In this document: positions 2,779-32,645 of the stretch, piece by piece
Layout of the letters: each line of letters opens with the position of its first letter
How positions within the stretch are numbered: position 1 is the first letter of the stretch
Assembly (NCBI GenBank): GCA_044892505.1
Contig: CM097883.1
Span: 336,784,001-336,848,000, forward strand
Length of the DNA stretch: 64,000 bases
DNA from: Schmidtea nova
Taxonomy: Eukaryota
Direction of reading: 5' to 3'
Notes under the pieces: model-generated
The model's database searches: none
What the model saw: the letters and a program-made list of their open reading frames with translations, nothing else
What the model was told of the DNA's origin: nothing
Made by a program: the position numbers and the translations under genes

Positions 2779-3246
2779 TCATGAGTCACACGATAATATG
2801 AAATCGGCAAAGGCTTTATCTTCAATAATTGATTTTACATCATTAATAATAATATCAACTATATTTAAATAGTCTTTGTTTTTTAAACCTAATATAACTA
2901 CTTTACCGCTTGCAAATATATTAACGCACATGGGGTTATATTTTGTATATCTCAAAGCTGGAAATATTTCTGGTTCGTAAACACATTCTATTAATTTAGC
3001 CAAATCACTTAAATTACAATTAAATCCCAAGTCTGTCGTTACAGTGATTGATTGTATTGTTAAATTGTAAAACTTTACTTTTTCATCACTAATAAATTCC
3101 TTACATCCCATAATTCTATATCTCCCGGTCTTAAAATATATTATCGGATATTTACCACTTCTATCAACAATTTGCTGTGGTTTCCCATTTGGAAAATTCA
3201 TGTGAGATACATCAGTCTTACCCTTATAATTTATGTTGCTAATCAT
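2779..3246 (-). CDS. TATA-binding-protein-like protein (divergent TBP fold, 155 aa)
   Basis: YEPEIFPALRY...IFASGKVVILGLK matches TBP repeat 2 (YEPELFPGLIY...IFVSGKVVLTGAK); YFKTGRYRIMGCK matches repeat 1 (IFSSGKMVCTGAK); ATG 3246 chosen by homology to 24986. Confidence 0.85.
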   Translation of the reverse strand: MISNINYKGKTDVSHMNFPNGKPQQIVDRSGKYPIIYFKTGRYRIMGCKEFISDEKVKFYNLTIQSITVTTDLGFNCNLSDLAKLIECVYEPEIFPALRYTKYNPMCVNIFASGKVVILGLKNKDYLNIVDIIINDVKSIIEDKAFADFILSCDS

Positions 3247-3337
3247 TACTGAAATTTTTTTAAATATGACAATAATAAAAACAACTATTATTTTAAACAA
3301 ATATAAACAATAATAATAAATTAATAAAATTTGAAAA

Positions 3338-3961
3338 ATGGAATTAAGAAATGATGCAGTGTTTCAAATTGTTGGACCGAGCGGGAGTGGAAAAACTATA
3401 TATGTTTGTAAATTATTACAATCAAAATTATTCAAATCAAAGTTTAATAAAATTTATTGGCATAGGGGTGCGGATGATGAACATGGAATGACTCAAGATC
3501 AATTTTGTAAAATAAAAATGACTATAATAAAAGGTTTCGATAAAAATTGGTCATCAAGATTAAGAGAAGGGGATGTGATTATTATTGATGATTTGTACCA
3601 AGAAGCAAATAAAGAAAAGGATTTTAATAATTTATTTACAAAAATCGCTAGACACAAGGGTGTTACAGTCATTTTTATTACTCAGAATTTATTTCATCTG
3701 GGCGGCAGTCATCGAACTCGTAATTTAAATGTTCAATATCTTGTTGTTTTTAAAAATCCTAGAGACGCAACAGTTATTGATTTTCTTGCAAGACAAGCAT
3801 ACCCTTCTAATCGTAATTTCTTGATTGAAGCATTCCAAGATGCCACAAAAGCCCCTCATGGATATCTTTTTCTTGATTTCACGCAACAATGTAGTGATGA
3901 TTTAAGAGTTAGAACAGATATTTTCAACAAGGAAGGAGCCATGGTTTATAAACAAAGTTAA
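3338..3961 (+). CDS. A32/FtsK-like DNA packaging ATPase
   Basis: Walker A GPSGSGKT, Walker B IIIDD, ARH and ITQN motifs. Confidence 0.95.
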   Translation: MELRNDAVFQIVGPSGSGKTIYVCKLLQSKLFKSKFNKIYWHRGADDEHGMTQDQFCKIKMTIIKGFDKNWSSRLREGDVIIIDDLYQEANKEKDFNNLFTKIARHKGVTVIFITQNLFHLGGSHRTRNLNVQYLVVFKNPRDATVIDFLARQAYPSNRNFLIEAFQDATKAPHGYLFLDFTQQCSDDLRVRTDIFNKEGAMVYKQS

Positions 3962-3981
3962 CTAGATGTATATTATCAATC

Positions 3982-4524
3982 ATGTTAATGAAATCTAGAG
4001 TAAAGTTTGAGCGCTTGATAAAGGCTAGAAAAATGAAGAAACCGGGAAAGAAATTAGTTTCAAAGAAAGTATTTACAAAGAAAACAAAGAAACCAGTTCC
4101 AAAAACTAGTTATACACCATCTAAAAAATTACTTATTGATAATATCCCAAAAAGTAATCGTATTCAAAATACTTACAAACCAAATCCAAAACAACTAAAT
4201 CATCGTAGTTTCCCATTTTTCAATGCATTACTTAAAGCCCCTAGTATTAGAAGAATGAGTATTTTACAATCGTTTCCTAATTACGTTATTGACGATTTAC
4301 TAATGATTTTAATTAAAGTTGTTAGAGGTAAAATCAATATAAGTGAATCTAATAGAAGAGTTTTGAACAAACACAAGAAACCATTGTTATCACTTGTAAA
4401 AACCAAAAATAGAAAATTAATGCGTAAAATAATATATAAACAACAAGGAGGGTTTATTGCAGCATTGTTACCATTAGCATTATCACTATTAGGAGGTGCT
4501 GGTTTATTAGGAAAACAGTCATAA
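3982..4524 (+). CDS. Lys-rich putative virion core protein with C-terminal QQGG-FIAALLPLAL hydrophobic peptide
   Basis: Very basic; adenain-like xGG cleavage site followed by an amphipathic segment; homolog 23739-24248. Confidence 0.65.
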   Translation: MLMKSRVKFERLIKARKMKKPGKKLVSKKVFTKKTKKPVPKTSYTPSKKLLIDNIPKSNRIQNTYKPNPKQLNHRSFPFFNALLKAPSIRRMSILQSFPNYVIDDLLMILIKVVRGKINISESNRRVLNKHKKPLLSLVKTKNRKLMRKIIYKQQGGFIAALLPLALSLLGGAGLLGKQS

Positions 4525-4527
4525 ACA

Positions 4528-4749
4528 ATGGGACAATCATTGCCTAATCTTAATTTAAACTTTAAATCTTCTTGTTGTAATGGAGAAGATTTGGACCAAC
4601 CCAAAACACGAAGCAGGTTTCGGTGGAGTCAAAAAGCTAAGCAAAAATGTATCGAATTCGAAAAAACAGACTCAAAGTTGGTTATCGGGGCAACTTGCAT
4701 ACAGTCTAAACAAACCTATGCTGAAACGGTTTCCGACTCGAGCATATAA
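4528..4749 (+). CDS. Small protein (73 aa) overlapping the integrase 5' end in another frame
   Basis: Same start, length and stop in B (23514-23735); the 4 codon differences in the 17 non-overlapped codons are all synonymous. Confidence 0.65.
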   Translation: MGQSLPNLNLNFKSSCCNGEDLDQPKTRSRFRWSQKAKQKCIEFEKTDSKLVIGATCIQSKQTYAETVSDSSI

Positions 4750-5627
4750 AACATATAGAATTAATGATTTGTGGCAAATGGATTTGATGGAAATAATTCC
4801 GTATTCAAAAATTAACAAGGGATACAAGTATATTTTAACATGTATTGATGTTTACAGTCGTTTCGCTCGAGCTATTCCGGTAAAATCTAAATCTGCTAAT
4901 GATATGGCAATCGCAATCAAAACAATGTTCAAAAGTGGACGTCCAACTAATTTACAAACTGATTTGAGTAAGCTAATAAATATTTTAGAAAATGATAATT
5001 ATTTATCTAGGTAAGGAATTTTACAATAGCAAAGTCAAAGAAATTATAAAGGGAATCAATCATTACTCAGTATTCTCTCAATTCAAAGCCGCTCATGTTG
5101 AAAGATTTAATCGTACATTACGAGATCGTCTCAAAAAGTATTTTGTACATCAAGGTAATAAAATATGGATTAATGTTTTACCACAAATGATTCATAGTTA
5201 TAATCATTCTGCTCATCGAGGTATAAATGGAAGGAAACCTGCTGAAGTAGTTGATACTAAAAAAATTTTGAATGATACAATAATAAAGAAACCAAAATAT
5301 AAAATAGGTGATCATGTTCGAATTAGTAAAATTAGTGCATCGCCATTCATTAAAAATTTTTATAGTAATTGGAGTGATGAGGTATTTAAAATATCGAAAG
5401 TCAACACAGTCCAGAATCCTGTCATGTATACTATTTCTGACTCTGATAACAATATAGTCAGTGGGAAATTCTATGAACAAGAATTACAAGTTATTCCCCC
5501 TCCCACAATATTTAGAATTCAAAAAATATTGAAAACTAAAATGGTAGGTAAGGATAAACAATACTATGTAAAGTGGCATGGATATAAAGAACCATCATGG
5601 ATATCGTCAAAAGACCTAGTAAAGTGA
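4580..5627 (+). CDS. int: Retroviral-like DDE integrase with C-terminal chromodomain; two exons (intron 4968-5010)
   Basis: WQMDL, QTDL|SKEF, VERFNRTL; YYVKWHGY chromodomain; 43-nt GT-AG intron restores the frame (334 aa). Confidence 0.93.
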
Positions 5628-6643
5628 ATTTCTATACTATATTACCAAGTAATAGCTGTCCACTAATACATCCAGACAATCAAGCCAGTAAATTCATGGT
5701 CAATCTCCAAAATCCAATTTATTTAAATGGTAATTGGGAAGTTGCATTACAAGATTTCACGTTTGTGTACAATACATTTCCATTTTATAGTCAATGTAAG
5801 ATTGATTACAAAAGAATTGAAAATAGAACATGCAGTGGTCAATTCATCATCAACAATTTTGAAAGGATATATACTATTCCTAACCAAAATTTGAATGTTC
5901 ATTGTAGTATGTATTTCAGCAATGGTTGTTTAAAAATTAATTGTGATTTTACTCCATATACAATTACATTTAAAAATATTGAAGAAGCCAAGCGAATGGG
6001 AAGTCATCAACTTAAAATTGTAAGTACACTAAAAGAATATCAATTAAAGTTCATATTATTTGAACCGAATAGTTATTTGAAAGAAGATTTTACAGTGACA
6101 ATATCACATGATGCAGAAATTGAAGATACATTTACATTTGCAAATGATTTGTATATAATGCAACTGGAAGATTTATCTAAATATTTATCATTCAATTGTT
6201 CCCATATCTTTAAAACTCTAGAGATTAATAAATGGTTCCAATTCTGTCTCAATGATAATATTAGTGAAGTTACATTTGATAAAAACTTGGTCAATACTTT
6301 AGGATTAGCTAAACAAACGTATAGAGACCGAAACCTTGTCGATGGGACTGTGAAACCTAAAATACTTGTTCATCATCAACAAATGTTCATTTACAGTAAC
6401 ATTATTGAACCAATAATTGTCGGTGATTCTCTGGTTCCCCTACTAAAATCGGTATGGATCGAAAAATATGAACAGGATGAAGTTGTACAAATAGTAATGG
6501 ATAATCCAATGTACTTACCTATTTCTACCTCATGTATAAACAATATAGAAATAAATATACGTGACGATAGTGGTAAATTAATAAATTTTCCAAAAGATTC
6601 AAAAACACATTTGACATTACATTTTCGTAGATTAAATGAGTAA
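5597..6643 (+). CDS. Minor capsid protein (penton-like)
   Basis: FYTILPSNS...WEVAL N-terminus and IEINIRDDSG...LTLHFR C-terminus typical of Polinton mCP. Confidence 0.85.
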   Translation: MDIVKRPSKVNFYTILPSNSCPLIHPDNQASKFMVNLQNPIYLNGNWEVALQDFTFVYNTFPFYSQCKIDYKRIENRTCSGQFIINNFERIYTIPNQNLNVHCSMYFSNGCLKINCDFTPYTITFKNIEEAKRMGSHQLKIVSTLKEYQLKFILFEPNSYLKEDFTVTISHDAEIEDTFTFANDLYIMQLEDLSKYLSFNCSHIFKTLEINKWFQFCLNDNISEVTFDKNLVNTLGLAKQTYRDRNLVDGTVKPKILVHHQQMFIYSNIIEPIIVGDSLVPLLKSVWIEKYEQDEVVQIVMDNPMYLPISTSCINNIEINIRDDSGKLINFPKDSKTHLTLHFRRLNE

Positions 6644-7016
6644 TCCCGATATAATTTCATTGTACAGTAATAGCCAAACCGGTGGCGAATTACCGTATTT
6701 TGTAAGTAAACAGTATGGATCAGGTTGGTTAAAAACTATTGGAAGATTTGCACTTCCAATACTTAAGCGAATAGGTAGTTTTGGATTCAATACTGCCAAG
6801 GATGTAATCATGAAAGATAATAAACTATTACCGTCATTGAAAACAAATGCTTTGGCCGCAGTTAATAAAGCTATACCTGCTGTAACACAAATGATTCCTT
6901 CAATTACAAATATGTTTACAAAAAATGAACCGGAACCTGTACCAGTAGGACCAAGACGTAAACGAAAACGTATAAACAAACGAATGAAAGGTCATGGAAC
7001 TATATTTGAAGAATGA
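6636..7016 (+). CDS. Putative internal virion protein (adenovirus pVI/pX-like)
   Basis: QTGG, QYGSG and KGHG glycine motifs, amphipathic WLKTIGRFALPILKR, basic C-terminus; lies between mCP and MCP. Confidence 0.65.
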   Translation: MSNPDIISLYSNSQTGGELPYFVSKQYGSGWLKTIGRFALPILKRIGSFGFNTAKDVIMKDNKLLPSLKTNALAAVNKAIPAVTQMIPSITNMFTKNEPEPVPVGPRRKRKRINKRMKGHGTIFEE

Positions 7017-8233
7017 TTTGCGGTAAATCTGAATTATGTATTTTTGATCGACCAAGCCCCCAAGCAGTTATTGAATATGGGGTGTTTGAAGATGTGTTTC
7101 CAATGAATTCTATTACAGATAGTAGAAATGATGTGGAATTTTACATTAATGGTTCACAAACCGAATATTTGGATTTGAACGATACGTTATTATCCGTTAC
7201 GGTCAAAGTTGTAGATAAAGATAAAAAGAACTTAGTTGATGCGAGTGATGTAGTACCTAATAATTACTTGTTTCATACACTTTTCAAAGATGCAATTCTT
7301 GGATTTAATAATATAAAAATCGAAGGTGGAAACAATACATATGCACACAAGGCAATAATCGAAACTATTTTAAATTGTACGAATGATTCAAAAGAAACTT
7401 GTCTTACTCCAATGGGATATGGGGCAAGTGACGATAGAAAAAAGTGGATCAAGGGATCGAAACTTTTTAACATGTGTTCATCATTACAACTCGATTTTAT
7501 GGATCAACCTAAATACTTACTTCCCGGAGTTAATGTACATATTAGATTGAAGCGATCTGATTCTGCATTATCATTGAAATCAGCAACTGGGAAACCAATA
7601 ATCCAATTAGTAGACGCTAAATTAATGGTTCGAAGAGTTCGGTGTGAATCTTCAGTTTTGGCCGGTCATCAAATTGGTTTAAATAGCAAACATGCAATTT
7701 ATCCGATAAAATCCAAAGAAATCGTATCGTTTGCAATTGGTAAAGGTGCATCATCATTTTACAAGGAGCAAATATTTGGAGATAAAAGAATGCCTAATTT
7801 CATTCTTGTGGCTTTTCAAACAGAAAATCAATATAACGGGTCTTATGCTGAATCTTCATCTACATTCAAACACTTTAATGTAACTTCATTATCATTATCG
7901 AAAAATACCGATTATCGAGAAACTTATACTCAAGATTTTGAAAATGATAATTTGAGTGCCACATATATGCAAAGTCTTGTTAGAAATTTAGGATATTTAG
8001 ATAAAAACTTGAATTGTGGTATAAGTCTCGATGAATTTAAATCAAGTTATCCATTCTTTACTTTTGTTCTTGCTCCTGATTTTGACTTGAATCAAAGTCA
8101 AATCCCGCAAAATGGGAATTTACGATTAGATATCAAATTTGGTAAAGCCATTGACGAACCGGTTCATGTAATAATATATGGATTGTTTGAAAATGAAGTA
8201 CAAATTACTGCGAATCGAACTGTATTAGTTTGA
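7013..8233 (+). CDS. Major capsid protein (double jelly-roll)
   Basis: CGKSELCIF start, 406 aa, PFFTFVLAPD...NLRLDIKF; syntenic position; near-identical to 20033-21253. Confidence 0.9.
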   Translation: MICGKSELCIFDRPSPQAVIEYGVFEDVFPMNSITDSRNDVEFYINGSQTEYLDLNDTLLSVTVKVVDKDKKNLVDASDVVPNNYLFHTLFKDAILGFNNIKIEGGNNTYAHKAIIETILNCTNDSKETCLTPMGYGASDDRKKWIKGSKLFNMCSSLQLDFMDQPKYLLPGVNVHIRLKRSDSALSLKSATGKPIIQLVDAKLMVRRVRCESSVLAGHQIGLNSKHAIYPIKSKEIVSFAIGKGASSFYKEQIFGDKRMPNFILVAFQTENQYNGSYAESSSTFKHFNVTSLSLSKNTDYRETYTQDFENDNLSATYMQSLVRNLGYLDKNLNCGISLDEFKSSYPFFTFVLAPDFDLNQSQIPQNGNLRLDIKFGKAIDEPVHVIIYGLFENEVQITANRTVLV

Positions 8234-8375
8234 GCAGAGCTCAAAAATTACTGTTTTGAGCAGAGCTCAAACATTATTAGTTTGTGCAGGTATAAATGAA
8301 CCAAATGATAGAAATAATTGTCATGGAGTAAGTTTTTTAATTACTAAAATACTTAATTAAATTAGTTCTGTTCAG

Positions 8376-8699
8376 GTATATAGACTTGGTAAAAAACTAT
8401 TGGGAAATCAATTTATTGGAGTTTATCCACTAGATAAAATTCCGTATTTAGATATTAATCAGGCCATCATTGTAAATACTCAGACATCTACTTTGGGCGG
8501 TGAGCATTAAATTGCTGTTTATGTGAAACCGGATCGAATACATGTATTTGATCCATTTGGATATTATTATCCCAATTTACTAGTTCGAAAATTGCAGACT
8601 ATGGGTAAACCGATTGTATATAATAGAATTCGGTATCAACATCCATTCTCGACCACTTGTGGTCAACATTGCCTTGCATGGCTAAAATCTATGTTATAA
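8376..8699 (+). pseudogene. Adenain-like cysteine protease with premature stop
   Basis: GEH*(TAA 8508-8510, TGG in B), FDPFG, YQ, TCGQHC; preceded by intron-like 8328-8375. Confidence 0.85.
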
Positions 8700-8733
8700 A
8701 CAATTTAGTTTAATAAATTTTGTTGTGAAAAAA

Positions 8734-9150
8734 ATGACTTGTTATTTTATTGATATTTACGGTTATAATGATATGGGAGGATTAATTATTAAAGAATTAT
8801 GTATTATGAATGTTAATAATATTTTTAAACCAAAGTATTATATATACAATGATTTACCGTTCTGGGCTGGAATTGGAATTCCCGATCGATTAGAATGGTA
8901 TGAAGGACAAGATTACTTTTGCCCAACATGTATTATGAATGATATTGAAGATACTAGTGCTATTTTCTATGTCACTGATGCTGATAAACTCCAAGTCTTG
9001 AAGAAATATTTCCCGAAATTGAGATTAATTAAATATAATTTTAAAGAAATTGAAGATGTTCCAGATAATATATCATGTCCATATAGGGATCATAGTATGT
9101 GTGCCTATAAAGGATGTTTGAGTGCAGTTATTGATTATTTAAAGCAATAA
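8734..9150 (+). CDS. DEDD/DnaQ-exonuclease-like Polinton protein with C-terminal Cys/His cluster
   Basis: YFIDIYG...IIKELCI N-terminus, CPYRDHSMCA; homolog 19121-19522. Confidence 0.6.
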   Translation: MTCYFIDIYGYNDMGGLIIKELCIMNVNNIFKPKYYIYNDLPFWAGIGIPDRLEWYEGQDYFCPTCIMNDIEDTSAIFYVTDADKLQVLKKYFPKLRLIKYNFKEIEDVPDNISCPYRDHSMCAYKGCLSAVIDYLKQ

Positions 9151-9243: not shown

Positions 9244-9604
9244 TTATAAATATTATTATCATCTCTTTATTTTATAAATGTAATTATTATTATTATTTTA
9301 TAAATATTATTAAATTATTCGTCACATGTATATCATAAAGCATGATGACATCAACAAAGTCTTTGTCGATAAAGTCACGACATAAAGACACATGGGGTCG
9401 TGAACTTACATGTCTTTATGTAGTCACATAACAACTATCGTGACATAAACAAACATGCAGTATGTGTGCATTTATTTCCCTATCCTATCTCGATTCTGAT
9501 TGGATGGTTAATAAAACTTGAAATTATCTGCTTTATATAGTCTATACTTGTATTATTTCGTCACTTTTAATCACAAAATCTATTATCAAGTTTTTTAAAT
9601 AAAA

Positions 9605-10003
9605 ATGAATAATTTAATGAATCAAGGACGAGTTGCTCGAAAATCATACGGAGCTGGAGTCAATGGTAAATTTACTTTTTATTTAATTATTTATTTTTAA
9701 TATTATTAGAAGTTAATATAGCGAACAATATCGCGAACAATATCTTAAATAACAACGGATATGTCACTGGGACTGGAGTCATTGGAACTGGAGTCATCGG
9801 AAATAGAGTCAATGGTATATTTACTTTTATTATTGTTAATTTTAATTGACAATAATCTTTAGAAATTAATAATGTAATAAATTACGGCCAAACTGATGCT
9901 CAAATTACTGCTGGTTCTCGTTTTTATGCCCCGAATGCAGCTGGTTCTACTTGCAATGGATCAAATTTTAATGCTGCTGGATTAACGATTGGATTGAAAA
10001 AAT
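9605..10003 (+). pseudogene. polB: polB (A) upstream exons 1-3: 9605-9665, 9710-9814, 9863-10003
   Basis: GT-AG phase-1 introns of 44 and 48 nt; same exon structure in B; donor at 10004 joins acceptor at 10658 in polB frame. Confidence 0.65.
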
Positions 10004-18728: not shown

Positions 18729-19120
18729 ATTCTTCATTTTTCTTTTTTAAATTGATAAAATAATTTGAAATTGATTAAAAATTTTGTGAGTAAAAAGTGA
18801 CGAAATAATTCAAGTATATACTATATAAAGGTGAATTTTATTAACCGACCAATCAGAATCGAGATAGGATAGGCAAATACATGCACACATACTGCACACA
18901 TAATATACCTTTGTTTATGTATGTTTGACGTCACGATATTGCTTTGTATCGTGACAAAGACATGACATGTCACGTTTTATCATGTGCTTATCACGCATTG
19001 ATCACGCACTGGTCATGCCTTTGTGATGAAAATAATAATATTTATAATTAATAATAATAAAAATAATAATTAATAAAAAAATAATAATTAATAAAAATAA
19101 TAAAAAATAATAAAATACAT

Positions 19121-19522
19121 TTATTGCTTTAAATAATCAACAACAGCAGACAAGCACCCTTTATAGGCACACATGCAATGATCTTTATAGGGACATGAAA
19201 TGTTTTCAGGAACATATTCAACTTCTTTATAATTATATTTAATTAATCGTAATTTGGGAAAATACTTCTTCAAAACATGCATCTTTTCATTATCGGTAAC
19301 ATAGAAAATAGCTCCTTTATCTGTAATATCATCCATTATACATTTTGGGCAAAAATAATCTTGTCCTTCAAACGATTCTATACGATCAGGCCATAAAGAT
19401 AAATCACTGTATATATAATACTGAGGTGTGAAAATATTATTGACATTCATAATACATAATTCCTTAATTGTTGTTCCACCCATTTCATTATATCCATAAA
19501 AATCGATAAAATAACAAGACAT
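19121..19522 (-). CDS. DEDD/DnaQ-exonuclease-like Polinton protein
   Basis: YFIDFYG...TIKELCI; homolog of 8734-9150. Confidence 0.6.
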   Translation of the reverse strand: MSCYFIDFYGYNEMGGTTIKELCIMNVNNIFTPQYYIYSDLSLWPDRIESFEGQDYFCPKCIMDDITDKGAIFYVTDNEKMHVLKKYFPKLRLIKYNYKEVEYVPENISCPYKDHCMCAYKGCLSAVVDYLKQ

Positions 19523-19554
19523 TTTTTCAAATAAAGTTTATTAAAATAAATTGT

Positions 19555-19878
19555 TTATAACATTGATTTCAACCATGCAAGGCAATGTTCACCACAAGTG
19601 ATTGTTAAAGGATGCTGATACCGAATTCTATTATACACAATAGGTTTACCGATAGTTTGTAGTTTTCGAACAAGTAAATTCGGATAATAATATCCAAAGG
19701 GATCAAATACATGTATTCGATCTGGTTTCACATAAACTGCAATCCAATGTTCACCGCCCAACGTAGATGTCTGAGTATTTACAATGATGGCTTGATTCAT
19801 TTTCAAATAAGGTATTTTATCGAGAGGAAATACTCCAATAAATTGATTTCCCAATAGTTTTTTACCTTGTTGTAATAC
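19555..19878 (-). CDS. Adenain-like cysteine protease (start codon unresolved)
   Basis: Catalytic H (GEHW), D (FDPFG), Q (RYQ), C (TCGEHC); intron-like 19879-19927 upstream. Confidence 0.88.
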   Translation of the reverse strand, partial: VLQQGKKLLGNQFIGVFPLDKIPYLKMNQAIIVNTQTSTLGGEHWIAVYVKPDRIHVFDPFGYYYPNLLVRKLQTIGKPIVYNRIRYQHPLTITCGEHCLAWLKSML

Positions 19879-20032
19879 CTGAAAAGAACTATTTCAAAAT
19901 AAATAACTAATCAATTAAAAATCTTACTCCATAATAATAATAATAAAAATAATAACTTTGATCATTTATACTGTTTAAGCTTTGCTCAAAATACAAATGT
20001 TTAAGCTCAAACCAATAATGTTTGAGCTCTGC

Positions 20033-21253
20033 TCAAACCAGTATTGTTCGATTGGCAGTAATTTGAACTTCATTTTCAAAAACTCCATAAATAACTACAT
20101 GAACCGGTTCATCAATAGGTTTGGCAAACTTTATATCGAGTCGTAAATTTCCGTTTTGAGGGATTTGGCTTTGATTCAAATCAAAATCGGGAGCCAGAAC
20201 AAATGTAAAGAATGGATAACTAGATTTAAATTCATCTAGACCAATACCACAATTCAAGTTTTTATCCAAATAACCTAGATTTCGGACAAGACTTTGCATA
20301 TATGATGCACTAAAATTATCATTTTCAAAATCCTGGGTATATGTTTCACGATAATCGGTATTTTTCGACAATGTTAATGAAGTCACATTAAAATGTTTGA
20401 ATGTTGATGTTGACTCGGTATAAGACCCATTATATTGATTTTCAGATTGAAAAGCCACAAGAATGAAATTAGGCATTCGTCTATCTCCAAATATTTGCTC
20501 CTTGTAAAATGACGATGCCCCTTTACCGATAGCAAACGATACGATTTCTTTAGATTTTAATGGATAAATTGCATGTTTTTTATTTAAACCAATTTGATGA
20601 CCGGCCAATACTGAAGAATCACATCGAACTCTTCTTACCATTAATTTTGCATCAACTATTTGGATAACTGGTTTCCCAGCTGCAGATTTCAATGATAATG
20701 CAGAATCAGATCGCTTCAATCTAATATGTACATTAACTCCGGGAAGTAAGTATTTAGGTTGATCCATAAAATCCAGTTGTAATGACGAACACATGTTGAA
20801 AAGTTTAGATCCCTTTATCCATTTTTTCCGATCGTCGGCTGAACCATATCCCATTGGAGTAAGACACGTTTCTTTAGCATCATTCGTATAATTTAAAATA
20901 GTTTCGATTATTGCCTTGTGTGCATATGTATTGTTTCCACCCTCGATTTTTATATTATTAAATCCGAGAATTACATCTTTGAAAAGTGTATGAAACAAAT
21001 AATTATTGGGAACTACATCACTCACATCAGCTAGAGCTTTTTTATCTTTATCTACAACCTTGATTGTAACGGACAATAATGTATCGTTCAAATCCAAATA
21101 TTCGGTTTGAGAACCATTAATGTAAAATTCAACATCATTTCTACTATCTGTAATTGAATTCATTGGAAACACATCTTCAAACGCCCCATATTCAATAACT
21201 GCTTGAGGTGATGGTCGATCAAAAAGACATAATTCAGATTTACCGCAAATCAT
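20033..21253 (-). CDS. Major capsid protein (double jelly-roll)
   Basis: Colinear homolog of 7013-8233. Confidence 0.9.
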   Translation of the reverse strand: MICGKSELCLFDRPSPQAVIEYGAFEDVFPMNSITDSRNDVEFYINGSQTEYLDLNDTLLSVTIKVVDKDKKALADVSDVVPNNYLFHTLFKDVILGFNNIKIEGGNNTYAHKAIIETILNYTNDAKETCLTPMGYGSADDRKKWIKGSKLFNMCSSLQLDFMDQPKYLLPGVNVHIRLKRSDSALSLKSAAGKPVIQIVDAKLMVRRVRCDSSVLAGHQIGLNKKHAIYPLKSKEIVSFAIGKGASSFYKEQIFGDRRMPNFILVAFQSENQYNGSYTESTSTFKHFNVTSLTLSKNTDYRETYTQDFENDNFSASYMQSLVRNLGYLDKNLNCGIGLDEFKSSYPFFTFVLAPDFDLNQSQIPQNGNLRLDIKFAKPIDEPVHVVIYGVFENEVQITANRTILV

Positions 21254-21633
21254 TCTTCAAATATAGTTCCATGACCTTTCATTCGTTTGTTTATACGTTT
21301 TCGTTTACGTCTTGGTCCTACCGGTACAGATTCCGGTTCCTTATTTTTTGTAAACATATTTGTAATTGTAGGAAGCATTTGTGTTACAGCAGGTATAGCT
21401 TTATTAACTGCGGCCAAAGCATTGGTTTTCAATGACGGTAATATTTTATTATCTTTCATGAGAACGTCCTTGGCAGTATTCATTCCGAAATTACCTAGTC
21501 GTCTAAGAATTGGAAGTGCAAATCTCCCAATAGTTTTCAACCAACCTGATCCGTACTGTTTACCGACAAAATACGGTAATTCGCCACCAGTTTGGCTATC
21601 ACTGTACATTGAAACTATATCGGGATTACTCAT
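21250..21633 (-). CDS. Putative internal virion protein (pVI/pX-like)
   Basis: Homolog of 6636-7016. Confidence 0.65.
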   Translation of the reverse strand: MSNPDIVSMYSDSQTGGELPYFVGKQYGSGWLKTIGRFALPILRRLGNFGMNTAKDVLMKDNKILPSLKTNALAAVNKAIPAVTQMLPTITNMFTKNKEPESVPVGPRRKRKRINKRMKGHGTIFEE

Positions 21634-22669
21634 CGTTTTTTCGAAAATGTAGAGTTAAGTGAGTTTTTGAATCTTTTGGAAATTTTATAAATCTTCCACT
21701 GTCATCCCGGATATTTATTTCTATATTGTTTATACAAGATGTTGAAACAGGTAAATACATTGGATTTTCAACTTGTATTTGAACAATTTCATCTGGCTCG
21801 TATTTTTCAATCCATACCGATTTTAGTAAAGGAACCAAGGAATCACCAACAATAATGGGTTCGATAATGTTTGTATACACGAATAATTGCTGATGAAGTT
21901 TAGATATTTTCGGTTGACGAACACCAGAAATGATATTTTTATCGGTAAATGTATCCTTATCTAATCCCAATGTATTGACCAAGTATTTATCAAATCTGAC
22001 TTTATTGATTTTTTCTTTGAGTTTGAATTTGAACAATTTATTTAATTCGACAACTGTAAAAATATCCGAACAATTATCGCTAATATATTTCTGTAATTCA
22101 TCTAGATGCGTTATATACAACTCCTCCTTGAAGGTGAATACATGTCCTTCTTGACGATCATACGATATAGTAAAAGTAATTATTTCTTCATCGTTACTGG
22201 CCAAGTTTTGCATAACTTTGAATTCACATTCTTCTTCATTACATTTTATTGTCAGTTTATTACTTCCCATTCGTTTTGCTACATCAAGATCGTTAAATGT
22301 AATTGTATAAGGAACAACATTACACGTGAGAATTATTTTTCCACTTCGTTGCCACATTTCGATATCCGGATCAATTGTGTGAGTTGGAACATTCAGATGA
22401 CCACTATTATTATATATCGAGAAAAATGCATTTGCAACAATTGTTTTCGTAATATAGTAATATATTTTACAATAACTATAAAATGGAAAAGGTTGGTAAA
22501 CAAATGTAAAATCCATTAGAGCAACTTCCCAATTTCCGTTTAAATAAATTGGATTAGGTAAATTCACCATGAATTTACTTGCGGTATTATCCGGATGGAT
22601 ATTCGGACAACTATTGCTCGGTAAAATAGTGTAAAAATTCACTTTACTAGATTTTTTGACGAGATCCAT
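21626..22669 (-). CDS. Minor capsid protein (penton-like)
   Basis: Homolog of 5597-6643; conserved ends, divergent middle. Confidence 0.85.
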   Translation of the reverse strand: MDLVKKSSKVNFYTILPSNSCPNIHPDNTASKFMVNLPNPIYLNGNWEVALMDFTFVYQPFPFYSYCKIYYYITKTIVANAFFSIYNNSGHLNVPTHTIDPDIEMWQRSGKIILTCNVVPYTITFNDLDVAKRMGSNKLTIKCNEEECEFKVMQNLASNDEEIITFTISYDRQEGHVFTFKEELYITHLDELQKYISDNCSDIFTVVELNKLFKFKLKEKINKVRFDKYLVNTLGLDKDTFTDKNIISGVRQPKISKLHQQLFVYTNIIEPIIVGDSLVPLLKSVWIEKYEPDEIVQIQVENPMYLPVSTSCINNIEINIRDDSGRFIKFPKDSKTHLTLHFRKNDE

Positions 22670-23683
22670 GATGGTTCTTTATATCCATGCCATTTAACAT
22701 AGTATTGTTTATCCTTACCCACCATTTTAGTCTTCAAAATCTTTTGAATTCTAAATATCGTAGGTTTAGGAATAACTTGTAATTCTTGTTCGTAGAATTT
22801 GCCGCTGATTATATTGTTATCAGAGTCACGAATAGTATACATGACAGGATTCTGCACTGTGTTGACTTTCGATATTTGATATACCTCATCACTCCAATTA
22901 TTATCAAAATTTTTAACGAATGGCGATGTACTAATCTTGCTAATTCGAACATGATCATCAACTTTATATTTTGGTTTCTTTACTTTCACTTCACTCACAA
23001 TATTTTCAGTATCAACTACTTCTGCCGGTTTCCTGCCATTTATACCCCGATGAGCACTATGATTATAACTATGAATCAATTGAGGTAAGACATTAATCCA
23101 GGTTTTATTGCCTTTAAAAACAAAGTATTTTTTCAATCGATCACGCAAAGTTCGATTAAATCTCTCGACATGAGCGGCTTTGAATTGTGAGAATACCGAA
23201 TAATGATTTATTCCCTTGATTACTTCCTTGACTTTACTGTTGTAAAATTCCTTTCCTAAAAAATATTAAATTTATAAATTTAAATTAAAATTTACCCAAA
23301 TCCGTTTGTAAATTAGTTGGCCGATCCTTTTTCATCATTGTCTTGATAGCAATTGCCATATCATTAGCAGATTTTGATTTTACTCCAATTGCTCGAGCAA
23401 ATCTACTGTAAACATCAATACACGTTAAAATATACTTGTACCCCTTGTTAATTTTGGAATACGGAATCATTTCCATCAAGTCCATTTGCCACAAATCATT
23501 GATTCTATATGTTTTATATGCTCGAGTTGGAAATCGTTTCAACATCGGCTTGTTTAGACTGTATGCAAGTTGCCCCGATAACCAACTTTGTGTCTGTTGT
23601 TTCGACTTCTGTGCTTTTTTCCTTAGCTTTTCGACTCCACCGAAACCGGCGTCGTCTTTTGGGTTCGTCCAGATCTTCTCCAT
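22639..23683 (-). CDS. int: DDE integrase with chromodomain; two exons (intron 23256-23295)
   Basis: QTDLG|KEF after splicing the 40-nt intron; exon 1 is 388 nt, as in A. Confidence 0.95.
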
Positions 23684-23735
23684 TGCAACAAGAAGATTTA
23701 AAGTTTAAATTTAAATTAGGTAATGATTGACCCAT
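23514..23735 (-). CDS. Small overlapping protein (73 aa)
   Basis: Homolog of 4528-4749. Confidence 0.65.
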   Translation of the reverse strand: MGQSLPNLNLNFKSSCCNGEDLDEPKRRRRFRWSRKAKEKSTEVETTDTKLVIGATCIQSKQADVETISNSSI

Positions 23736-23738
23736 TGT

Positions 23739-24248
23739 TTATGACTTTCTTTTTCCCAATAAACCAGCACCTCCCAATAAAGATAATGCTAATGGTAACA
23801 ATGCTGCAATAAAACCACCTTGTTGTTTATATATTACTTTGCGCATAAGTTTTTTATTTTTTGAGTTTACTAGCGACAACAATGGTTTTTTATGTTTGTT
23901 CAAAACACGGCGATTAGATGGAGTTAGATTTATTTTACCTCGCACGACTTTAATTAAAATAGAGAGTAAATCATCGATGACGTAACTAGGAAACGATTGA
24001 AGAATACCCATTCTTCTAACGGAAGGGGCTTTAAGTAATGCATTAAAAAACGGTAAACTACGATGATGTGTTTGTTTAGCATTAGATTTCAAATTATTTT
24101 TGGGAATATTATCCATAAGTATTTTCTTGGATTTCTTTCTTGATTTCTTTATAGATTTCTTTGTAAATAGTTTCTTTGTTTTCTTTCCCGCTTTCTTTGT
24201 TCTAGCCTTTATCAATGGCTCAAACTTTACTCGAGATTTCATTAACAT
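23739..24248 (-). CDS. Lys-rich putative core protein
   Basis: Homolog of 3982-4524. Confidence 0.65.
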   Translation of the reverse strand: MLMKSRVKFEPLIKARTKKAGKKTKKLFTKKSIKKSRKKSKKILMDNIPKNNLKSNAKQTHHRSLPFFNALLKAPSVRRMGILQSFPSYVIDDLLSILIKVVRGKINLTPSNRRVLNKHKKPLLSLVNSKNKKLMRKVIYKQQGGFIAALLPLALSLLGGAGLLGKRKS

Positions 24249-24268
24249 GATTACGATTGTAAACAGAA

Positions 24269-24892
24269 TTAACTTTGTTTATAAACCATGGCTCCTTCAG
24301 GGTTAAAAATATCAGTTCTAACGCGTAAATCATCACTGCATTGTTGAGTAAAATCCAGGAAAATATATCCATGAGGAGATTTTGTAGCATCTTGAAAGGC
24401 TTCAATCAAAAAGTTACGATTAGAAGGATAAGCTTGTCTTGCCAGAAAATCAATAACTGTTGCATCTCTAGGATTTTTAAAAACAACAAGATATTGAACA
24501 TTTAAATTACGAGTTCGATGACTACCGCCCTGATGAAATAAATTCTGAGTTATAAAAATAACAGTAACACCTTTATGTCTACTGATTTTCGTAAATAAGT
24601 TATTGAAATCCTTTTCTTTATTTGCTTCTTGATACAAGTCGTCAATGATAATCACATCACCATGTTTTAATCTAGATGACCAGTTTTTATCGAAACCTTT
24701 AATGATTGTCATTTTTATTTTACAAAACTGATCTTGTGTCATTCCACTTTCGTCGTCAGCTCCCCTATGCCAATAAATATTATTAAATTTTGACTTGAAT
24801 AATTTCGATTGCAATAATTTACAAACAAATAAAGTTTTTCCACTCCCGCTCGGACCAACAATTTGAAACACTGCATCATTTCTTAATTCCAT
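24269..24892 (-). CDS. A32/FtsK-like packaging ATPase
   Basis: GPSGSGKT, IIIDD, SRH, ITQN. Confidence 0.95.
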   Translation of the reverse strand: MELRNDAVFQIVGPSGSGKTLFVCKLLQSKLFKSKFNNIYWHRGADDESGMTQDQFCKIKMTIIKGFDKNWSSRLKHGDVIIIDDLYQEANKEKDFNNLFTKISRHKGVTVIFITQNLFHQGGSHRTRNLNVQYLVVFKNPRDATVIDFLARQAYPSNRNFLIEAFQDATKSPHGYIFLDFTQQCSDDLRVRTDIFNPEGAMVYKQS

Positions 24893-24985
24893 ATTTAAAA
24901 CTTATATTTTCTTAATATTATTGTTTATATTTGTTTTAAATACCTGTTCTCAAAGTAATTATTTCATTTAAAAATATTTTCAGTA

Positions 24986-25453
24986 ATGATTAGAAACATT
25001 AATTACAAAGGTAAGACAGATGTATCACACATGAAATTTCCAAATGGAAAACCCCAGCAAATTGTAGATCGAAGTGGGAAATACCCAATAATATACTTTA
25101 AATCAGGAAGATATAGAATAATGGGATGCAGAGAATTTATTAGTGACGAACAAGTTGAGTTTTACGATTTAAAGATACAATCGATAACTGTAACTGCGGA
25201 TTTAGGATTTATTTGTAATTTGAATGAATTATCGAAATTAATACCGTGTGTTTACGAGCCAGAATTATTTCCAGCTTTGAGATATATCAAATATAATCCC
25301 ATGTGTGTAAATATATTTACAAGCGGGAAATTAGTCATATTAGGATTAAAAAACAAAGACTATAGTACTATAGTTGATGATATTATTTACGATATAAAAT
25401 CAATTATAGAAGATAAAGCCTTTGTTGATTTCATACTAACATGTGACTCATGA
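24986..25453 (+). CDS. TATA-binding-protein-like protein (155 aa)
   Basis: YEPELFPALRY...IFTSGKLVILGLK; LKIQSITVTADL aligns with TBP FKIQNMVGSCDV. Confidence 0.85.
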   Translation: MIRNINYKGKTDVSHMKFPNGKPQQIVDRSGKYPIIYFKSGRYRIMGCREFISDEQVEFYDLKIQSITVTADLGFICNLNELSKLIPCVYEPELFPALRYIKYNPMCVNIFTSGKLVILGLKNKDYSTIVDDIIYDIKSIIEDKAFVDFILTCDS

Positions 25454-26822: not shown

Positions 26823-27239
26823 ATGCAATCACGAAAACAAAATCTAGATATAAGCGAAGAAAAAATATATCAGACTGAGGTAAAACCAGTTCAGATGTAC
26901 TATGACAGCCGACTTTATTTTTTGGTTAATGAAATACCGTATCGATTATCATTTCCGGTAAAGTTAACAAAATCTTTATATGACAGTCTTGCTGTAATTA
27001 TTGCCAAGGAAGATATTATCGCATTAAATCGATTATTTTCAAAGATGAATGTTAATTTGACATGTAAAGAAACAATGTACATCAATAACCGAAAAACTCG
27101 GTTTCATGATGCTTTTCAAACTATTGATTTCATGGATCAAGAACACTGGTTCGTTACAGTTATTATTCAAGGGTACAAGATTGATAAAAAAGATGTTGTT
27201 ACTCCGATTTGGAGAGTTGACAATGCAAGATACGCATAA
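26823..27239 (+). CDS. Conserved hypothetical protein (138 aa; LTCKE)
   Basis: Homolog of 920-1336. Confidence 0.8.
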   Translation: MQSRKQNLDISEEKIYQTEVKPVQMYYDSRLYFLVNEIPYRLSFPVKLTKSLYDSLAVIIAKEDIIALNRLFSKMNVNLTCKETMYINNRKTRFHDAFQTIDFMDQEHWFVTVIIQGYKIDKKDVVTPIWRVDNARYA

Positions 27240-27885: not shown

Positions 27886-28917
27886 ATTTTGTCTTTTTAA
27901 TGTCTTTGTTTATGTGTTGCACGCATGTGTCTTTGTTTAGTTTGCATGTGTATTGCAATGTCTTTGTTCATGTTGCATGTGTATTGCAATGTCTTTGTTC
28001 ATGTTGCATGTGTATTGCAATGTCTTTGTTCATGTTGCATGTGTATTGCAAAGTCCTTGCACGTGTGTTGCAATGTCTTTGTTAACTTGCACACGTGTTG
28101 CAATGTCTTTAGTTTGAAAAAATAATAATTAAATGTAGCAGAACATTTAGTATCAGAACCCTGGAAGCAGAACATTGCGATCAGAACCCTGGAAGCAGAA
28201 CCTCTTCTGTGATGGTTTTGAAGTGCAAAAGCTTCATACTTGACAAATAATAATTAATTAAACATGCACACATATAAAAAATGTCTTTGTTTAGTTTGCA
28301 CACCTGTTGTAAATATTTTTGATTACTCGAAATTTTTTATTACTCGAATTTTGTCTTTTAAAAAAAAATTTGACTAAAAATAATTTGTGTTAAAAAATTT
28401 GTCTTAAAAAAATTTTTGAAAAAAAAAAATTGTCTTAAAAAAATTTTTGAAAAAAAATTTGTCTTAAAAAAATTTTTGAAAAAAAAATTTGTCTTAAAAA
28501 AATTTTTGAAAAAAAAATTTGTCTTAAAAAAATTTTTGAAAAAAAAAAATTTGGCGCGAAAAAAAATTTTGAAAAAAAAAATTTGGCGCGAAAATAATTT
28601 TTGAAAAAAAAAAATTTGGCGCGAAAATAATTTTTGAAAAAAAAAAATATGGCGCGAAAAAAATTTTTGAAAAAAAAAATTTGGCGCGAAATAAATTTTT
28701 GAATAAAAAAAATTATGACTCATCGATGACTCATCGATGACTCATCAAAAAAAAAAAAAAAAAGTATGACTCATCGATGACTCATCGATGACTCATCAAA
28801 AAAAAAAAAAATTTTTCTACCCCCCCCGGGGGGGGAGGGGGGGGTCTTTGTTCTTTTTTTTTCCGCCCACGCATGAGTCATAATGTCTTTGTTCCCGGCT
28901 CCACACATCTACCTACT
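27865..28917. repeat. Right TIR of Polinton B
   Basis: Reverse complement of 10952-12033. Confidence 0.95.
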
Positions 28918-28923
28918 CTTGAT
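28918..28923. repeat. 6-bp TSD CTTGAT (right copy)
   Basis: Matches 10946-10951. Confidence 0.95.
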
Positions 28924-31900
28924 AACAATCAAATAAATGAATTAATTAATATTAATAAACAATTAAATAATAACCTAAATATTTTAATTAATAATTTAAA
29001 TAATAATAAAAGAAAAATTTTTAATGAGGATTCAATTCCTCAAAAATATCAAATAATTGAAATAAGTGACGATGAAATCAATGAAATCAATGAAGATGAA
29101 ATCATCGAAATCAATGACGATGAAATCATCGAAATCAGTGATGATGATGATCAAATAATTAATAATAATTTAATTAATCAAGTAGGATGCGGAAATGTCG
29201 AGGTTATTTCCGACTTAAACGATTCCCACATAATTTTAAAAATGGATGTATCATCCTTAAACTTAAAAATTGTTGTTGTTCCAGATATTTTAATTAATAA
29301 ATTAAATTTAACAGTTTCGCAGATGAGTTCTGTAAAAATTCAGTTTTGTATAAAGGTAGAATTTGAGAAAGATGACGAACTCCAATCTTTCGTAATCTCA
29401 AATTCTGCCAGAACTATGAGTGATACCTTCATTGATGAAGGTATTGCTCTTTTAAACGAAAAAATTATTAAAATTAACGAAAAGGGTTCAAATTGGACGA
29501 TACATAAAATTGAATATATAAGTTTTTTATTAACAAAATATAGTGAAATTAGTCGCTTAAGTGGTCGTCGATTTCTCGCAACTCCTAAAACTTTACTTCG
29601 TAAATACTGCATTGTTAATATTGAAAATCAGGATGAGTTTTGCTTTCTTTATAGCATTTTGGCTATTTTAAAATATTATAGTACTATTCCTGAGTTGAGA
29701 CATCTTCCTTCCTCTTATAACCTTTCACAACTAAAGTATGATGCTGCTGATATGCCCATGAAACTTGGAAATATTTCTAAGTTTGAACGACAAAATCCAG
29801 GGTATGCAATTAATGTTTTGTCGTATGATGAAACTGCGTTGATTGATATAAGTAATGCCGGCTCTATAATGAAACATCCCTTTATAGATATAATTTATAA
29901 AAGTAAGGTTGTAGGAGGAACACCAATTAACTTACTGCTTTTAGATAATAATAAAAATTTTCATTACACTGCCATAACTGATTTAAATCGATTCTTAAAT
30001 TGCAGAAATGCATCAATAACTTCTGTCCGTATTTGCTGTCAATGGTGTCCTCGGTGTCCCAACGGTTTCCGAACTGATGATGGTTTTAATCGTCATCGTG
30101 GTCTTTGTGAAAATAATCAATTGGGTACAACTTTGTACACTTTGTCTAAAAACCCTTTGCTTGAATTTACTGATTGGAAGAAAACTGTCACTCCTCCCTT
30201 TGTCATTTATGCCGATTTTGAGGCAATTTTACCGAAGGACACCAAATATTATCAAAAACATTTACCGATTGCAGCTGGCTTATTACTAATTAATAACTTC
30301 ACCGGTGAAAAAATCTACAAATCATTTTTAGGGCTTGATTGTGTAGATCAATTTCTTCATGAAATTGAAGATATAAGTAAATATATTGTAAGTCCCTATT
30401 TTTATAAAAATTACAATAAGAAAATGATCTTCACTGGCGATGATCAAATAACTTTTAATAACAGCATAAACTGTCATTTGTGCAAGAAACTGTTAGTAGA
30501 ACCAATTAGAGATCACGACCATTTTTCAGGTCAATTTATTGGTGCAGCTTGCAAAAAGTGTAATCTTAGCAGGCAAATAAGACACACTTTGCCTGTTGTC
30601 TTTCATAATTTGAGAGGGTATGATCTCCATCATATCCTCAAATTTGGCTTATCTCGGTATACATCTTGGAATATAAGCTGCATTCCAATTACTAGCGAGA
30701 AATTTCTTTCACTTTTTGCTAATATTGATTCTTTGTCTGTGAAATTTATTGACTCTTGTCAATTTGTGTCTGAATCATTAAAAGGTGCTGTAGCAACACT
30801 AACATCTTTGCCATTAACATCTTCAGAGTTCAGGGGAACTATAATTAACAGCAAGGGAATTTTTCCTTACGATGTTGCGACCTCTTTAGATGTTTTAAGG
30901 TCAACATCAGAATTACCACCAATTTGGAAAGGTGTTGACGCAGAGGAATATGAGTTGGCTAAAGTAATATGCGAGAAACATCATGTACTTGCCTTTTGGA
31001 TTACATGATGGTGTATCTAAAACTTGATGTGTTTTTACTGGCTGACTTTTTTCAGCAATTTCGGGCTAAGAGCATTGCCCATAACAAACTTGAGCCCCTT
31101 AATTTCTTGGGGATTCCCGGTATGAGTTGGAGTTCGGCTTTGATGACTCTTGAGAAACCGATTACATTATTGACCGACATGGAAATGTACAATTTCTTTG
31201 AAGGGGGAATTCGTGGGGGGCGTACTTTTTTAAACAAACATTATGTTAAAAGTAGTGCGGATACAGAGTTGTTGTATATCGATATCAACAACCTGTATGG
31301 ATGGGCTTTATCACAAAAGCTACCCGAGGGTAATTTTCAATGGGTGACCGATGATAATTTATTAACTAATTTATTAATTGAATGCGCTACGGTAGATCTA
31401 AGTTTGCTTAGCTATGGTTATACCATAGAAGTAGATTTAGAAATACCGACATCTATTCACGATAAATTGGATGATTTTCCAATTGCCGCTGAAAAGATGT
31501 GCGCTCCTTTTTCCAAAGTTAAGAAGCTGTTGCTAACGCACAACTCCAAAAAGAACTACGTTCTTCATTGGAGGCTTCTACAGATTTTTATTAATTTAGG
31601 TGCACTTGTAACAAAAATACATAGGGCAATTAAATACGACCAAAGCTATGTATTTAAAAATTACATTGACACAAACACACAGTTAAGAGCAACATCGACA
31701 AGTAAATTAGACAAAAATTACTACAAGTTGCTCAACAACAGTTTGTATGGAAAAACTGTTGAGAATTTGAAAAAACGCATTAATCTGCGACTCTGCAATT
31801 CAGCACAAAAACTAATCACATATGCCTCAAAACCGGCATTTAGGAAAACCACAAGGATAGACGACGATTTGATTTCGGTTTTGCTTAGGAAGGAATCAGT

Positions 31901-32645
31901 GTGTTTGGATAGGCCTAGTTACATTGGGCAAACTGTACTAGATTTATCCAAACTGAGAATGTACGAGTTGCAGTACAATGAGTTACAAAAATATCGTAAT
32001 GAATTGAACTGTCAGATTAATATAGTTGCTGGAGACACTGATTCCTTCTTTTTGGAGATTAAAAATTGTAGTCTTGACATTCTTTTAGCTGCTATGATTA
32101 GAGACCAGTTGCTTGACACATCCAATTATGACCCTAATCATCCGTTATATAATAGGAACCTTGACTCTGTCATTGGCAAGTTCAAAGACGAGAGTAAAGG
32201 ACTATTATATAAGGAGTGGGTGTTCCTGAGGCCTAAATGTTACAGTTTGTTGGGTGATGCGAGTAACATGAAGGCTAAGGGAGTTGATTTGAAAGATACT
32301 GGACTGAGTCATGAGTCGTATCTTGATTGTTATGTGAACAATAGGATTTACAAGGTACCGCAATTTAGAATATGCAGCAAAAATCATCAGCTATATAGCA
32401 TTAAGAACAACAAAAAAGCACTGACAAATATGGACGACAAAAGGTTTTGGGTAACAAAAAATTAAAGTTTAGCCTATGGCAATTTTCGGGTGGGTGATAC
32501 CTTTATTGATGAACCAAATGATGATCCAGAACCTTTCAATCAGCCAATCTCTCCAGTTTTGTATCAAAATAATGAAGGAAATGATCCAGACAATCCAGAT
32601 GATTTTATTGATGATTTTAACAATGATCATGATTATTTTGCTTGA
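28918..32645 (+). pseudogene. polB: polB (A) 3' piece: 1-bp deletion at ~30971 and nonsense codon at 32463-32465
   Basis: ORFs 28873-31008 and 30969-32465 are colinear with B polB; SLAYG...DYFA* continues after the TAA. Confidence 0.92.

Follow-up and report, generated by a model that had tools for sequence, protein, structure and literature searches.

We identified a short and non-canonical member of the family of TATA-binding proteins (TBPs), referred to as mini-TBP, that is encoded by two Polintons of Schmidtea nova and is a fixed gene of a wide Polinton lineage. In the interpretation that we prefer, and hold at a probability of roughly 65%, this mini-TBP has an altered specificity, reads the word YATAAAC and recruits host TFIIB and RNA polymerase II (Pol II), much like the late-gene TBP mimics of herpesviruses. 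DNA binding by the mini-TBP, the reading of YATAAAC, the recruitment of TFIIB, and an early/late timing are what we infer from sequence. The window, i.e., the whole stretch of DNA that was analyzed, comprises 64,000 nt, and its features are listed in Table 1.

Table 1. Genes of Polinton elements A and B and sites of the promoter-like word in the window.
Feature	Position	Strand	Remark
Mini-TBP gene, element A (P0001)	2779–3246	−	intact, 155 aa
Mini-TBP gene, element B (P0002)	24986–25453	+	intact, 155 aa
A32-type ATPase, element A	3338–3961	+	head-to-head with mini-TBP
A32-type ATPase, element B	24269–24892	−	head-to-head with mini-TBP
Virion/integration module A	3338–9150	+	ATPase, core-like, integrase, penton-like, pX-like, hexon-like, protease region, 138-aa ORF
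Virion/integration module B	19121–24892	−	inverted; 82% identical to A over 7.1 kb
Peptidase_C5, element B	19555–19800		Pfam
138-aa ORF, element A	920–1336	−	canonical CCAAT and TATAAATA upstream
138-aa ORF, element B	26823–27239	+	same canonical promoter layout as A
Family B DNA polymerase ORF, 1417 aa	13114–17367	−	PolB motifs by eye
Family B DNA polymerase, element B	28873–32465	+	two frames (broken or frameshifted)
TATAAACA	3302–3309	+	36 nt before ATPase ATG, in non-coding gap between divergent TBP and ATPase genes
TATAAACA	3947–3954	+	within 3' end of ATPase, 35 nt before 180-aa core-like ORF
TATAAACA	4435–4442	+	before 73-aa ORF/integrase region, A
CATAAACA	4520–4527	+	60 nt before integrase ATG, A
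TATAAACA	6535–6542	+	101 nt before 126-aa pX-like ORF, A
TATAAACA	6971–6978	+	42 nt before 406-aa hexon-like ORF, A
TATAAACA	8695–8702	+	39 nt before 138-aa ORF at 8734, A
TATAAACA	24922–24929	−	before ATPase, B
TATAAACA	24276–24283	−	before core-like ORF, B
TATAAACA	23824–23831	−	before 73-aa ORF/integrase region, B
CATAAACA	23736–23743	−	before integrase, B
TATAAACA	21727–21734	−	before pX-like ORF, B
TATAAACA	21288–21295	−	before hexon-like ORF, B
TATAAACA	19552–19559	−	before 133-aa ORF, B

An earlier note, made from the letters of the window, had described two intact ORFs of 155 aa, each head-to-head with an ATPase gene, and had aligned them with both TBP repeats. Both ORFs are open at this length, their neighbors are A32-type ATPases, and the two proteins share 84% identity. 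The Pfam TBP family (PF00352) matched the two copies with 55.7 and 51.1 bits (cut-off 22.9), a match which is limited to the C-lobe (residues 62–127/133), while lobe 1 has no Pfam match of its own. Profile-profile comparison of the mini-TBP family (92 sequences) with canonical TBP covered both lobes over 146 columns (probability 99.7%, E = 9e-26), in agreement with the proposed alignment to both repeats. The nearest PDB structure by sequence was archaeal TBP 2z8u (E = 1.6e-17); comparison of atlas features with TBP clusters yielded 0.95–0.96, with recognition below the stated threshold. Of the repeat-2 motifs quoted earlier (YEPELFPAL and others), those given hold for copy B, but copy A reads YEPEIFPAL and IFASGKVVILGLK. 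By sequence, the Polinton ORF is thus a member of the TBP family, yet not a canonical TBP.

The mini-TBP genes belong to two inverted sets of Polinton genes, and 1–655 and 33280–33926, putative terminal inverted repeats, are inverted copies with 97% identity. The rve integrase, the A32-type ATPase (Pox_A32, 32.2 bits, cut-off 22.8), and the C5 protease all exceeded the Pfam cut-offs; the integrase of module A is an rve integrase with a chromodomain, spread over two frames. The Pfam scan of the window ORFs returned no PolB match and no match for the penton-like, pX-like, hexon-like, or core-like ORFs, labels that we presume from the known order (and size) of Polinton genes. An atlas search with residues 1–100 of a 197-aa neighbor ORF gave no usable match. 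In both elements, the integrase is split at the same place by a short AT-rich GT..AG interval (4969–5010 and ~23257–23294 on the minus strand), and distant relatives have the integrase as a single ORF. The interval is a probable lineage-specific intron, which would fit transcription by nuclear Pol II. The protease gene (~8290–8700 and 19555–19960) likewise shows an apparent short intron near its start, and in A this gene is interrupted by an in-frame stop codon. A further canonical promoter layout of CCAAT and TATATAG precedes an apparent spliced gene common to A and B (~9560–9700 on the plus strand and ~18760–18860 on the minus strand).

Several further observations concern the elements and their surroundings. 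In its own genome, the TBP gene forms sub-families at 60–100% identity within a very large Polinton expansion, and the similarity of neighboring genes to A and B varies independently, which hints at module shuffling. Near the terminal repeat of element B (34050–34200), we found a cluster of TGACGTCA and TGAGTCA, which we take to be CRE- and AP-1-like words. Between element B and the downstream repeat array lies a 359-aa ORF (34644–35723) with a weak zf-RVT match below the cut-off, which is probably the terminal part of a non-LTR retroelement. Other genes carried by TBP-bearing Polintons encode an E2 ubiquitin-conjugating enzyme (L046:225-719), a RING finger protein (L076:13315-13893), a KilA-N protein (L085:7136-7993), and a phospholipase A2-like ORF (L076:3994-4395). 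In the genome collection, five Polinton contigs (L112–L116) were binned into bacterial MAGs.

The mini-TBP gene is under purifying selection. Comparison of copies A and B revealed a dN/dS of 0.115 at a dS of 0.72 (0.064 for the ATPase), with 0.023 for residues 1–48 and 0.217 for residues 61–140. Repeat 1, which had been called degenerate, is indeed shortened, but this N-lobe is more constrained than the C-lobe. Among 40 stretches of the own genome that were picked by their ATPase, a TBP match stands head-to-head in all 40 (one of just 22 aa) and the mini-TBP is intact in 27; the other 13 were excluded from dN/dS calculation. First-look searches of the genome returned 19,110 TBP and 15,483 ATPase places, which are candidates and not copy numbers. 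The best 150 of the 19,110 TBP candidates contain no stop, each shares ≥99% identity with copy B, and they are spread over chromosomes C1–C3. From these matches, the host would therefore carry a very large number of variant TBP genes that expanded recently and in which the TFIIB surface is retained.

Relatives outside the own genome comprise 33 sequences from one protein search, and a profile search of representatives at 50% identity brought up 57 clusters (E ≤ 1e-30). Among 80 metagenome loci selected by their TBP, 37 have a Polinton core gene on their contig; the fraction amounts to 27 of 35 for contigs of at least 3 kb and 14 of 16 for those of at least 5 kb, with at least three gene orders. 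As the loci were selected by TBP and are mutually related, these counts represent non-independent events, and 15 of the 80 loci lack a usable TBP ORF, owing to a stop, a truncation, or a missing start. In a viral contig collection, the TBP scan returned a single locus (L031) with a canonical-looking TBP and no Polinton genes, and hexon-like and ATPase queries returned no loci. A quick tree, midpoint-rooted and with long branches, grouped 28 Polinton-linked TBPs together and separated them by a branch with an SH-aLRT of 92 from cellular TBPs and the host TBP. This separation points to an old acquisition of the Polinton TBP rather than a recent capture. Recent capture of the host gene was considered and ruled out; the host exon (L159) is 72% identical to canonical TBP and groups with cellular TBPs. 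Loci L159–L163 comprise the canonical host TBP together with several more of the TBP/TRF-like kind, one on a long branch. Within the Polinton TBPs, the tree further separates a short type without helix H2 from a long type with H2.

Residues are numbered after yeast TBP via colinearity with P0085, and the expected letters matched at every site checked. Counts refer to 144 short-type sequences, which were not de-duplicated; a few TBPs from outside the family are part of the "long" set of 54 sequences. Between the lobe-1 glycine and strand 1 of lobe 2, the linker has 16 residues in the mini-TBP versus 31 in canonical TBP, which fits the absence of helix H2; as read from the alignment, the N-lobe of the short type is devoid of H2 and of a portion of H1. 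In the region of the H2 basic patch, the column of K138 is gapped in 132 and that of K145 in 143 sequences. At F99, 140 sequences have a gap, with a conserved proline beside it, and the other three intercalating phenylalanines are kept (F116 in 141, F190 in 144, and F207 in 142). The alignment thereby supports the earlier statement that repeat 1 lacks the helix after GxK and one phenylalanine. The TFIIB-contacting glutamates are nearly invariant as well (E186 in 140, E188 in 142). On the DNA face, replacements are almost fixed, which applies to V71N (124), V122R (141), T124M (144), N159S/T (144), V161T/S (142), and L205N (142). Canonical minor-groove residues that are retained include N69, an L114-like residue, and V213. 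P191, which favors T at position 1 of the target, is retained in 131 sequences, though C is common at position 1 of the word described below.

With DNA-face replacements that are fixed and a gene under strong constraint, a changed specificity seems favored over decay. In yeast TBP, arginine substitutions on the DNA face abolish binding, and the lost phenylalanine together with the lost minor-groove residues could equally weaken DNA binding of the mini-TBP. In the sections of Ravarani et al. (PMC7221094) drawn on here, the two stirrup glutamates contact TFIIB/Brf, and the H2 basic patch contacts TFIIA, TAF1, Mot1/BTAF1, and Brf1/2.

In positions 1–34100 of the window, TATAAACA occurs at 12 sites, six per element, all on the sense strands of the modules and at matching places. 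It is absent from the antisense strands of the modules and from the other 22.3 kb of this region. A Markov model predicted 0.43 sites per module, with a maximum of 3 in 300 runs. The total of 12 is not unusual (permutation median 7, maximum 23 over 168 permutations), and the signal of TATAAACA lies in strand and position and not in total count. Per element, four of the six sites are located inside upstream ORFs checked for frame, where they are read in two frames. As would be expected of a promoter, the word precedes the leading gene of the run, next to which lies a divergent gene, and is absent after the last gene. The penton-like ORF of the window has no word nearby, and the mini-TBP genes of the window have no clear canonical TATA.

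We complemented these sites by the regions upstream of genes in relatives, among which duplicates were removed on the basis of shared 16-mers; owing to unreliable start calls, the core-like, protease, and PolB genes do not enter the motif counts. Within 110 nt before the ATPase start, YATAAAC was present in 19 of 20 de-duplicated metagenome loci (shuffles 0.65, antisense 0), and 17 of these 19 sites are located 32–55 nt from the ATG. The same held for integrase (9/14), penton-like (5/7), pX-like (4/4), and hexon-like genes (8/9) and for the downstream ORF (7/9); before module genes of these loci, the antisense count was 0 and shuffle means stayed below 0.7. An unbiased count revealed ATAAAC as the top 6-mer (39 of 49 versus 1.97 expected). 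Overall, 55 of 63 regions before such genes in relatives contain ATAAAC (antisense 1 of 63), mostly 30–59 nt from the ATG, i.e., at the place of a TATA box. None of the single-base variants exceeded 11 of the 63 regions (ATAAAA 5, ATAAAG 4, ATAAAT 11, GTAAAC 2). Position 1 is T in 31 regions (TATAAAC) and C in 21 (CATAAAC); the short type has mostly T (25 versus 6 with C) and the long type mostly C (17 versus 7 with T), so that the two sub-clades may differ in their preferred first base. The C at position 7 belongs to the half that is read by the N-lobe, according to the part of PMC1636458 considered here. In the own genome, the word precedes the ATPase in 38 of 40 stretches. Before TBP genes, YATAAAC was found in 0 of 42 cases, and a canonical TATA at similar spacing in 22 of 42 (shuffles 4.5).

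Contigs outside the own genome that were picked by their ATPase served as a further comparison. The one with a TBP of the mini-TBP family (L112) has ATAAAC before the ATPase. The negative control consists of four contigs, at least three of them incomplete and two from one assembly: no ATAAAC precedes the ATPase in three contigs without a detected TBP (L113–L115) or in one that encodes an unrelated TBP and its own TFIIB (L116). The link between protein and word is one of co-occurrence. The last contig represents a different Polinton-like element (L116 and L171, G003:C86, 22.9 kb; L158:824-2088), in which a divergent TBP gene stands beside a TFIIB-like gene (Pfam) and which has ORFs for ATPase, integrase, and protease-like, hexon-like, and PolB-like proteins. 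Its TBP has no acidic stirrup and falls outside the mini-TBP family in the tree, and YATAAAC is absent before its genes. On these sequence features, it would constitute a second, orthogonal solution in small DNA viruses.

In the mechanism that we propose, the mini-TBP would act as the factor by which the promoters of the Polinton's virion, packaging, and integration genes are recognized. Its re-faced saddle would bind YATAAAC(A) at TATA-box distance before the module genes, and the intact acidic stirrup of the C-lobe would recruit host TFIIB and, with it, Pol II. Loss of H2 would remove the surface for host TFIIA, TAF1, Mot1/BTAF1, and Brf1/2, so that the mini-TBP would act outside TFIID and escape eviction by Mot1. 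The ordinary TATA box before the TBP gene in many relatives suggests a two-step cascade, in which host TBP would produce viral TBP, and viral TBP would then switch on the late-type genes. That a broad, animal-type Polinton lineage runs such an early/late cascade of its own, with a private word and borrowed host TFIIB and Pol II, is a view towards which we lean slightly. The idea of a basal factor for late promoters, raised in the earlier note, is thereby retained as the best reading, but the element would be YATAAAC and not the TATAAA before the protease; the protease has TATAAATG upstream in both copies, unlike the YATAAAC before other module genes.

Compared with known systems, the mini-TBP shares with cellular and archaeal TBPs the two-lobe layout (by profile), a complete C-lobe, the acidic stirrup, F116/F190/F207, N69, and P191. 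It differs from cellular TBP by its length of 155 aa, the apparent lack of H2 and part of H1, the loss of F99, and the fixed swaps at V71, V122, T124, N159, V161, and L205. By analogy, its mode of action most likely resembles that of the late-gene TBP mimics of beta- and gammaherpesviruses. In KSHV ORF24, as far as Table 1 and the related text of PMC12529657 show, V122, T124, V161, and L205 are also changed, and a polar DNA face is needed for late-gene activation. Common to both are a viral TBP fold (predicted for the mini-TBP) and a more polar DNA face, which is paired with a non-canonical promoter word in ORF24 (TATTWAA) and may be so in the mini-TBP. According to the same parts of that source, however, ORF24 has 752 aa and all four phenylalanines, whereas the mini-TBP is a bare core of 155 aa with three; ORF24 lacks the TFIIB-binding acids, has its own Pol II-binding domain, and acts in a six-protein complex, whereas the mini-TBP keeps the acids. 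The mini-TBP is therefore not a herpesvirus-type vTBP in the sense of a large multidomain protein with its own Pol II domain and without the acids.

TBPs of NCLDV likewise are virus-encoded and have lost the regulatory patch of the N-lobe. According to the sections of PMC7221094 drawn on here, a paper in which Polintons are not mentioned, most NCLDV and giant-virus TBPs have lost the glutamates and come with a viral TFIIB, and their drifting stirrup is conserved to ~40%. In contrast, the stirrup of the mini-TBP is conserved to 97–99%, and no partner TFIIB was seen. Pfam searches of 18 ORFs from the window (out of 49 with ≥70 aa) detected no TFIIB, and neither did those of 36 further ORFs of the TBP lineage (unassigned ORFs from 104 listed, plus 2 window ORFs); the scan, which covered element ends and spliced genes partly, did detect TFIIB in L158. 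With adintoviruses and Mavericks, the elements share rve integrase, packaging ATPase, adenain-type protease, and putative PolB and capsid-type ORFs. In the text consulted of Starrett et al. (2021; PMC8502044), the legend of Figure 5 labels a TBP-like gene in adintovirus-like elements, in a section on non-animal datasets, and TBP occurs once in the main text; the map text of animal adintoviruses in Figure S2 names no TBP, and neither a promoter word nor a mechanism was seen in the text consulted. The novelty claimed in the earlier note, in which TBP lies outside the canonical Polinton gene set, is slightly lowered by this one label. By titles and abstract openings, the open-literature papers found on TBP in Polintons, Mavericks, and adintoviruses describe neither the mini-TBP family nor the word.

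Other explanations have to be weighed against the preferred one. A dominant-negative TBP mimic, also considered in the earlier note, is kept as a weaker rival that we regard as unlikely: a mini-TBP with poor DNA binding would tie up host TFIIB by its stirrup, and host TBP would read YATAAAC as a weak TATA variant once the copy number in the genome rises. Such a decoy would be compatible with the nearly invariant stirrup, the lost F99, and the bulky Arg and Met on the DNA face, and host TBP tolerates some TATA variants (PMC1636458, in the part considered). Against it, the DNA-face residues are fixed and do not drift, the N-lobe has the low dN/dS of 0.023, and host TBP leaves the strict C unexplained, as ATAAAC clearly outnumbers ATAAAA, ATAAAG, and ATAAAT in the 63 regions. 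Moreover, TFIIB normally binds TBP on DNA. Similarly doubtful is a reading of the word by a different factor, be it a host Forkhead protein or the product of another Polinton ORF, with the mini-TBP as a low-specificity partner beside it. The Forkhead consensus is RYAAAYA, which ATAAACA fits, and ATAAACA is present in 46 of the 63 regions; unassigned ORFs of 138 and 177/197 aa accompany the TBP gene, and the TBP-like factors of herpes- and poxviruses act within complexes. However, further Forkhead-type words are rare (GTAAACA 1/63, GTAAATA 2/63), the word is locked to one strand and mostly to the TATA-box place, and the 138-aa ORF of the 920–1336 type accompanies the TBP gene in just 20 of 80 metagenome loci.

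We consider it improbable that the word is a signal for RNA 3'-end formation or termination, or for packaging or replication, with TBP having a separate job, e.g., at the terminal repeats. In favor of this, the genes follow one another closely in head-to-tail order, so that most sites fall close to where the preceding gene stops, and the word is similar to AATAAA. Against it speak the position of the word before the first gene, whose neighbor is divergent, its absence after the last gene, and the lack of TATAAACA in the unmasked terminal-repeat region. Least of all do we expect the mini-TBP to serve Pol III genes like those of the neighboring U6/tRNA array, a link that had been proposed speculatively. 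The array itself is real: a tandem array of ~35 near-identical units of 760 nt occupies ~36400–64000, a few units being spaced 1134 nt, and every unit combines a U6 snRNA gene with a tRNA gene that lies on the other strand. The stirrup is contacted by Brf1/2 as well, according to the sections of PMC7221094 drawn on here. The link is nevertheless not supported, as the gene copies are scattered over the genome (all 150 listed places over C1–C3), the N-lobe patch needed by Brf1/2 is missing, and the word is absent from the U6 repeat unit, with three YATAAAC in 34101–64000 versus ~35 units.

With a dedicated factor and a defined word of 7–8 bp, the question of how integrated Polintons switch on their capsid and packaging genes, be it with or without a helper virus, becomes accessible to simple binding, reporter, and start-site experiments. 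If the altered specificity of the mini-TBP is true, it should become apparent as a contrast in binding between YATAAAC and TATAAAAG, and between YATAAAC and its single-base variants. The word may also aid the annotation of Polinton genes. If the cascade is true, it would represent a convergent counterpart of the herpesvirus late-gene TBP mimics and evidence for control of Polinton virion genes without a helper virus. It would further provide a natural orthogonal pair of TBP and promoter, with a regulation-proof TBP as the smallest possible kit. Overall, the sequences suggest that these Polintons bring their own switch for packaging and capsid-type genes.
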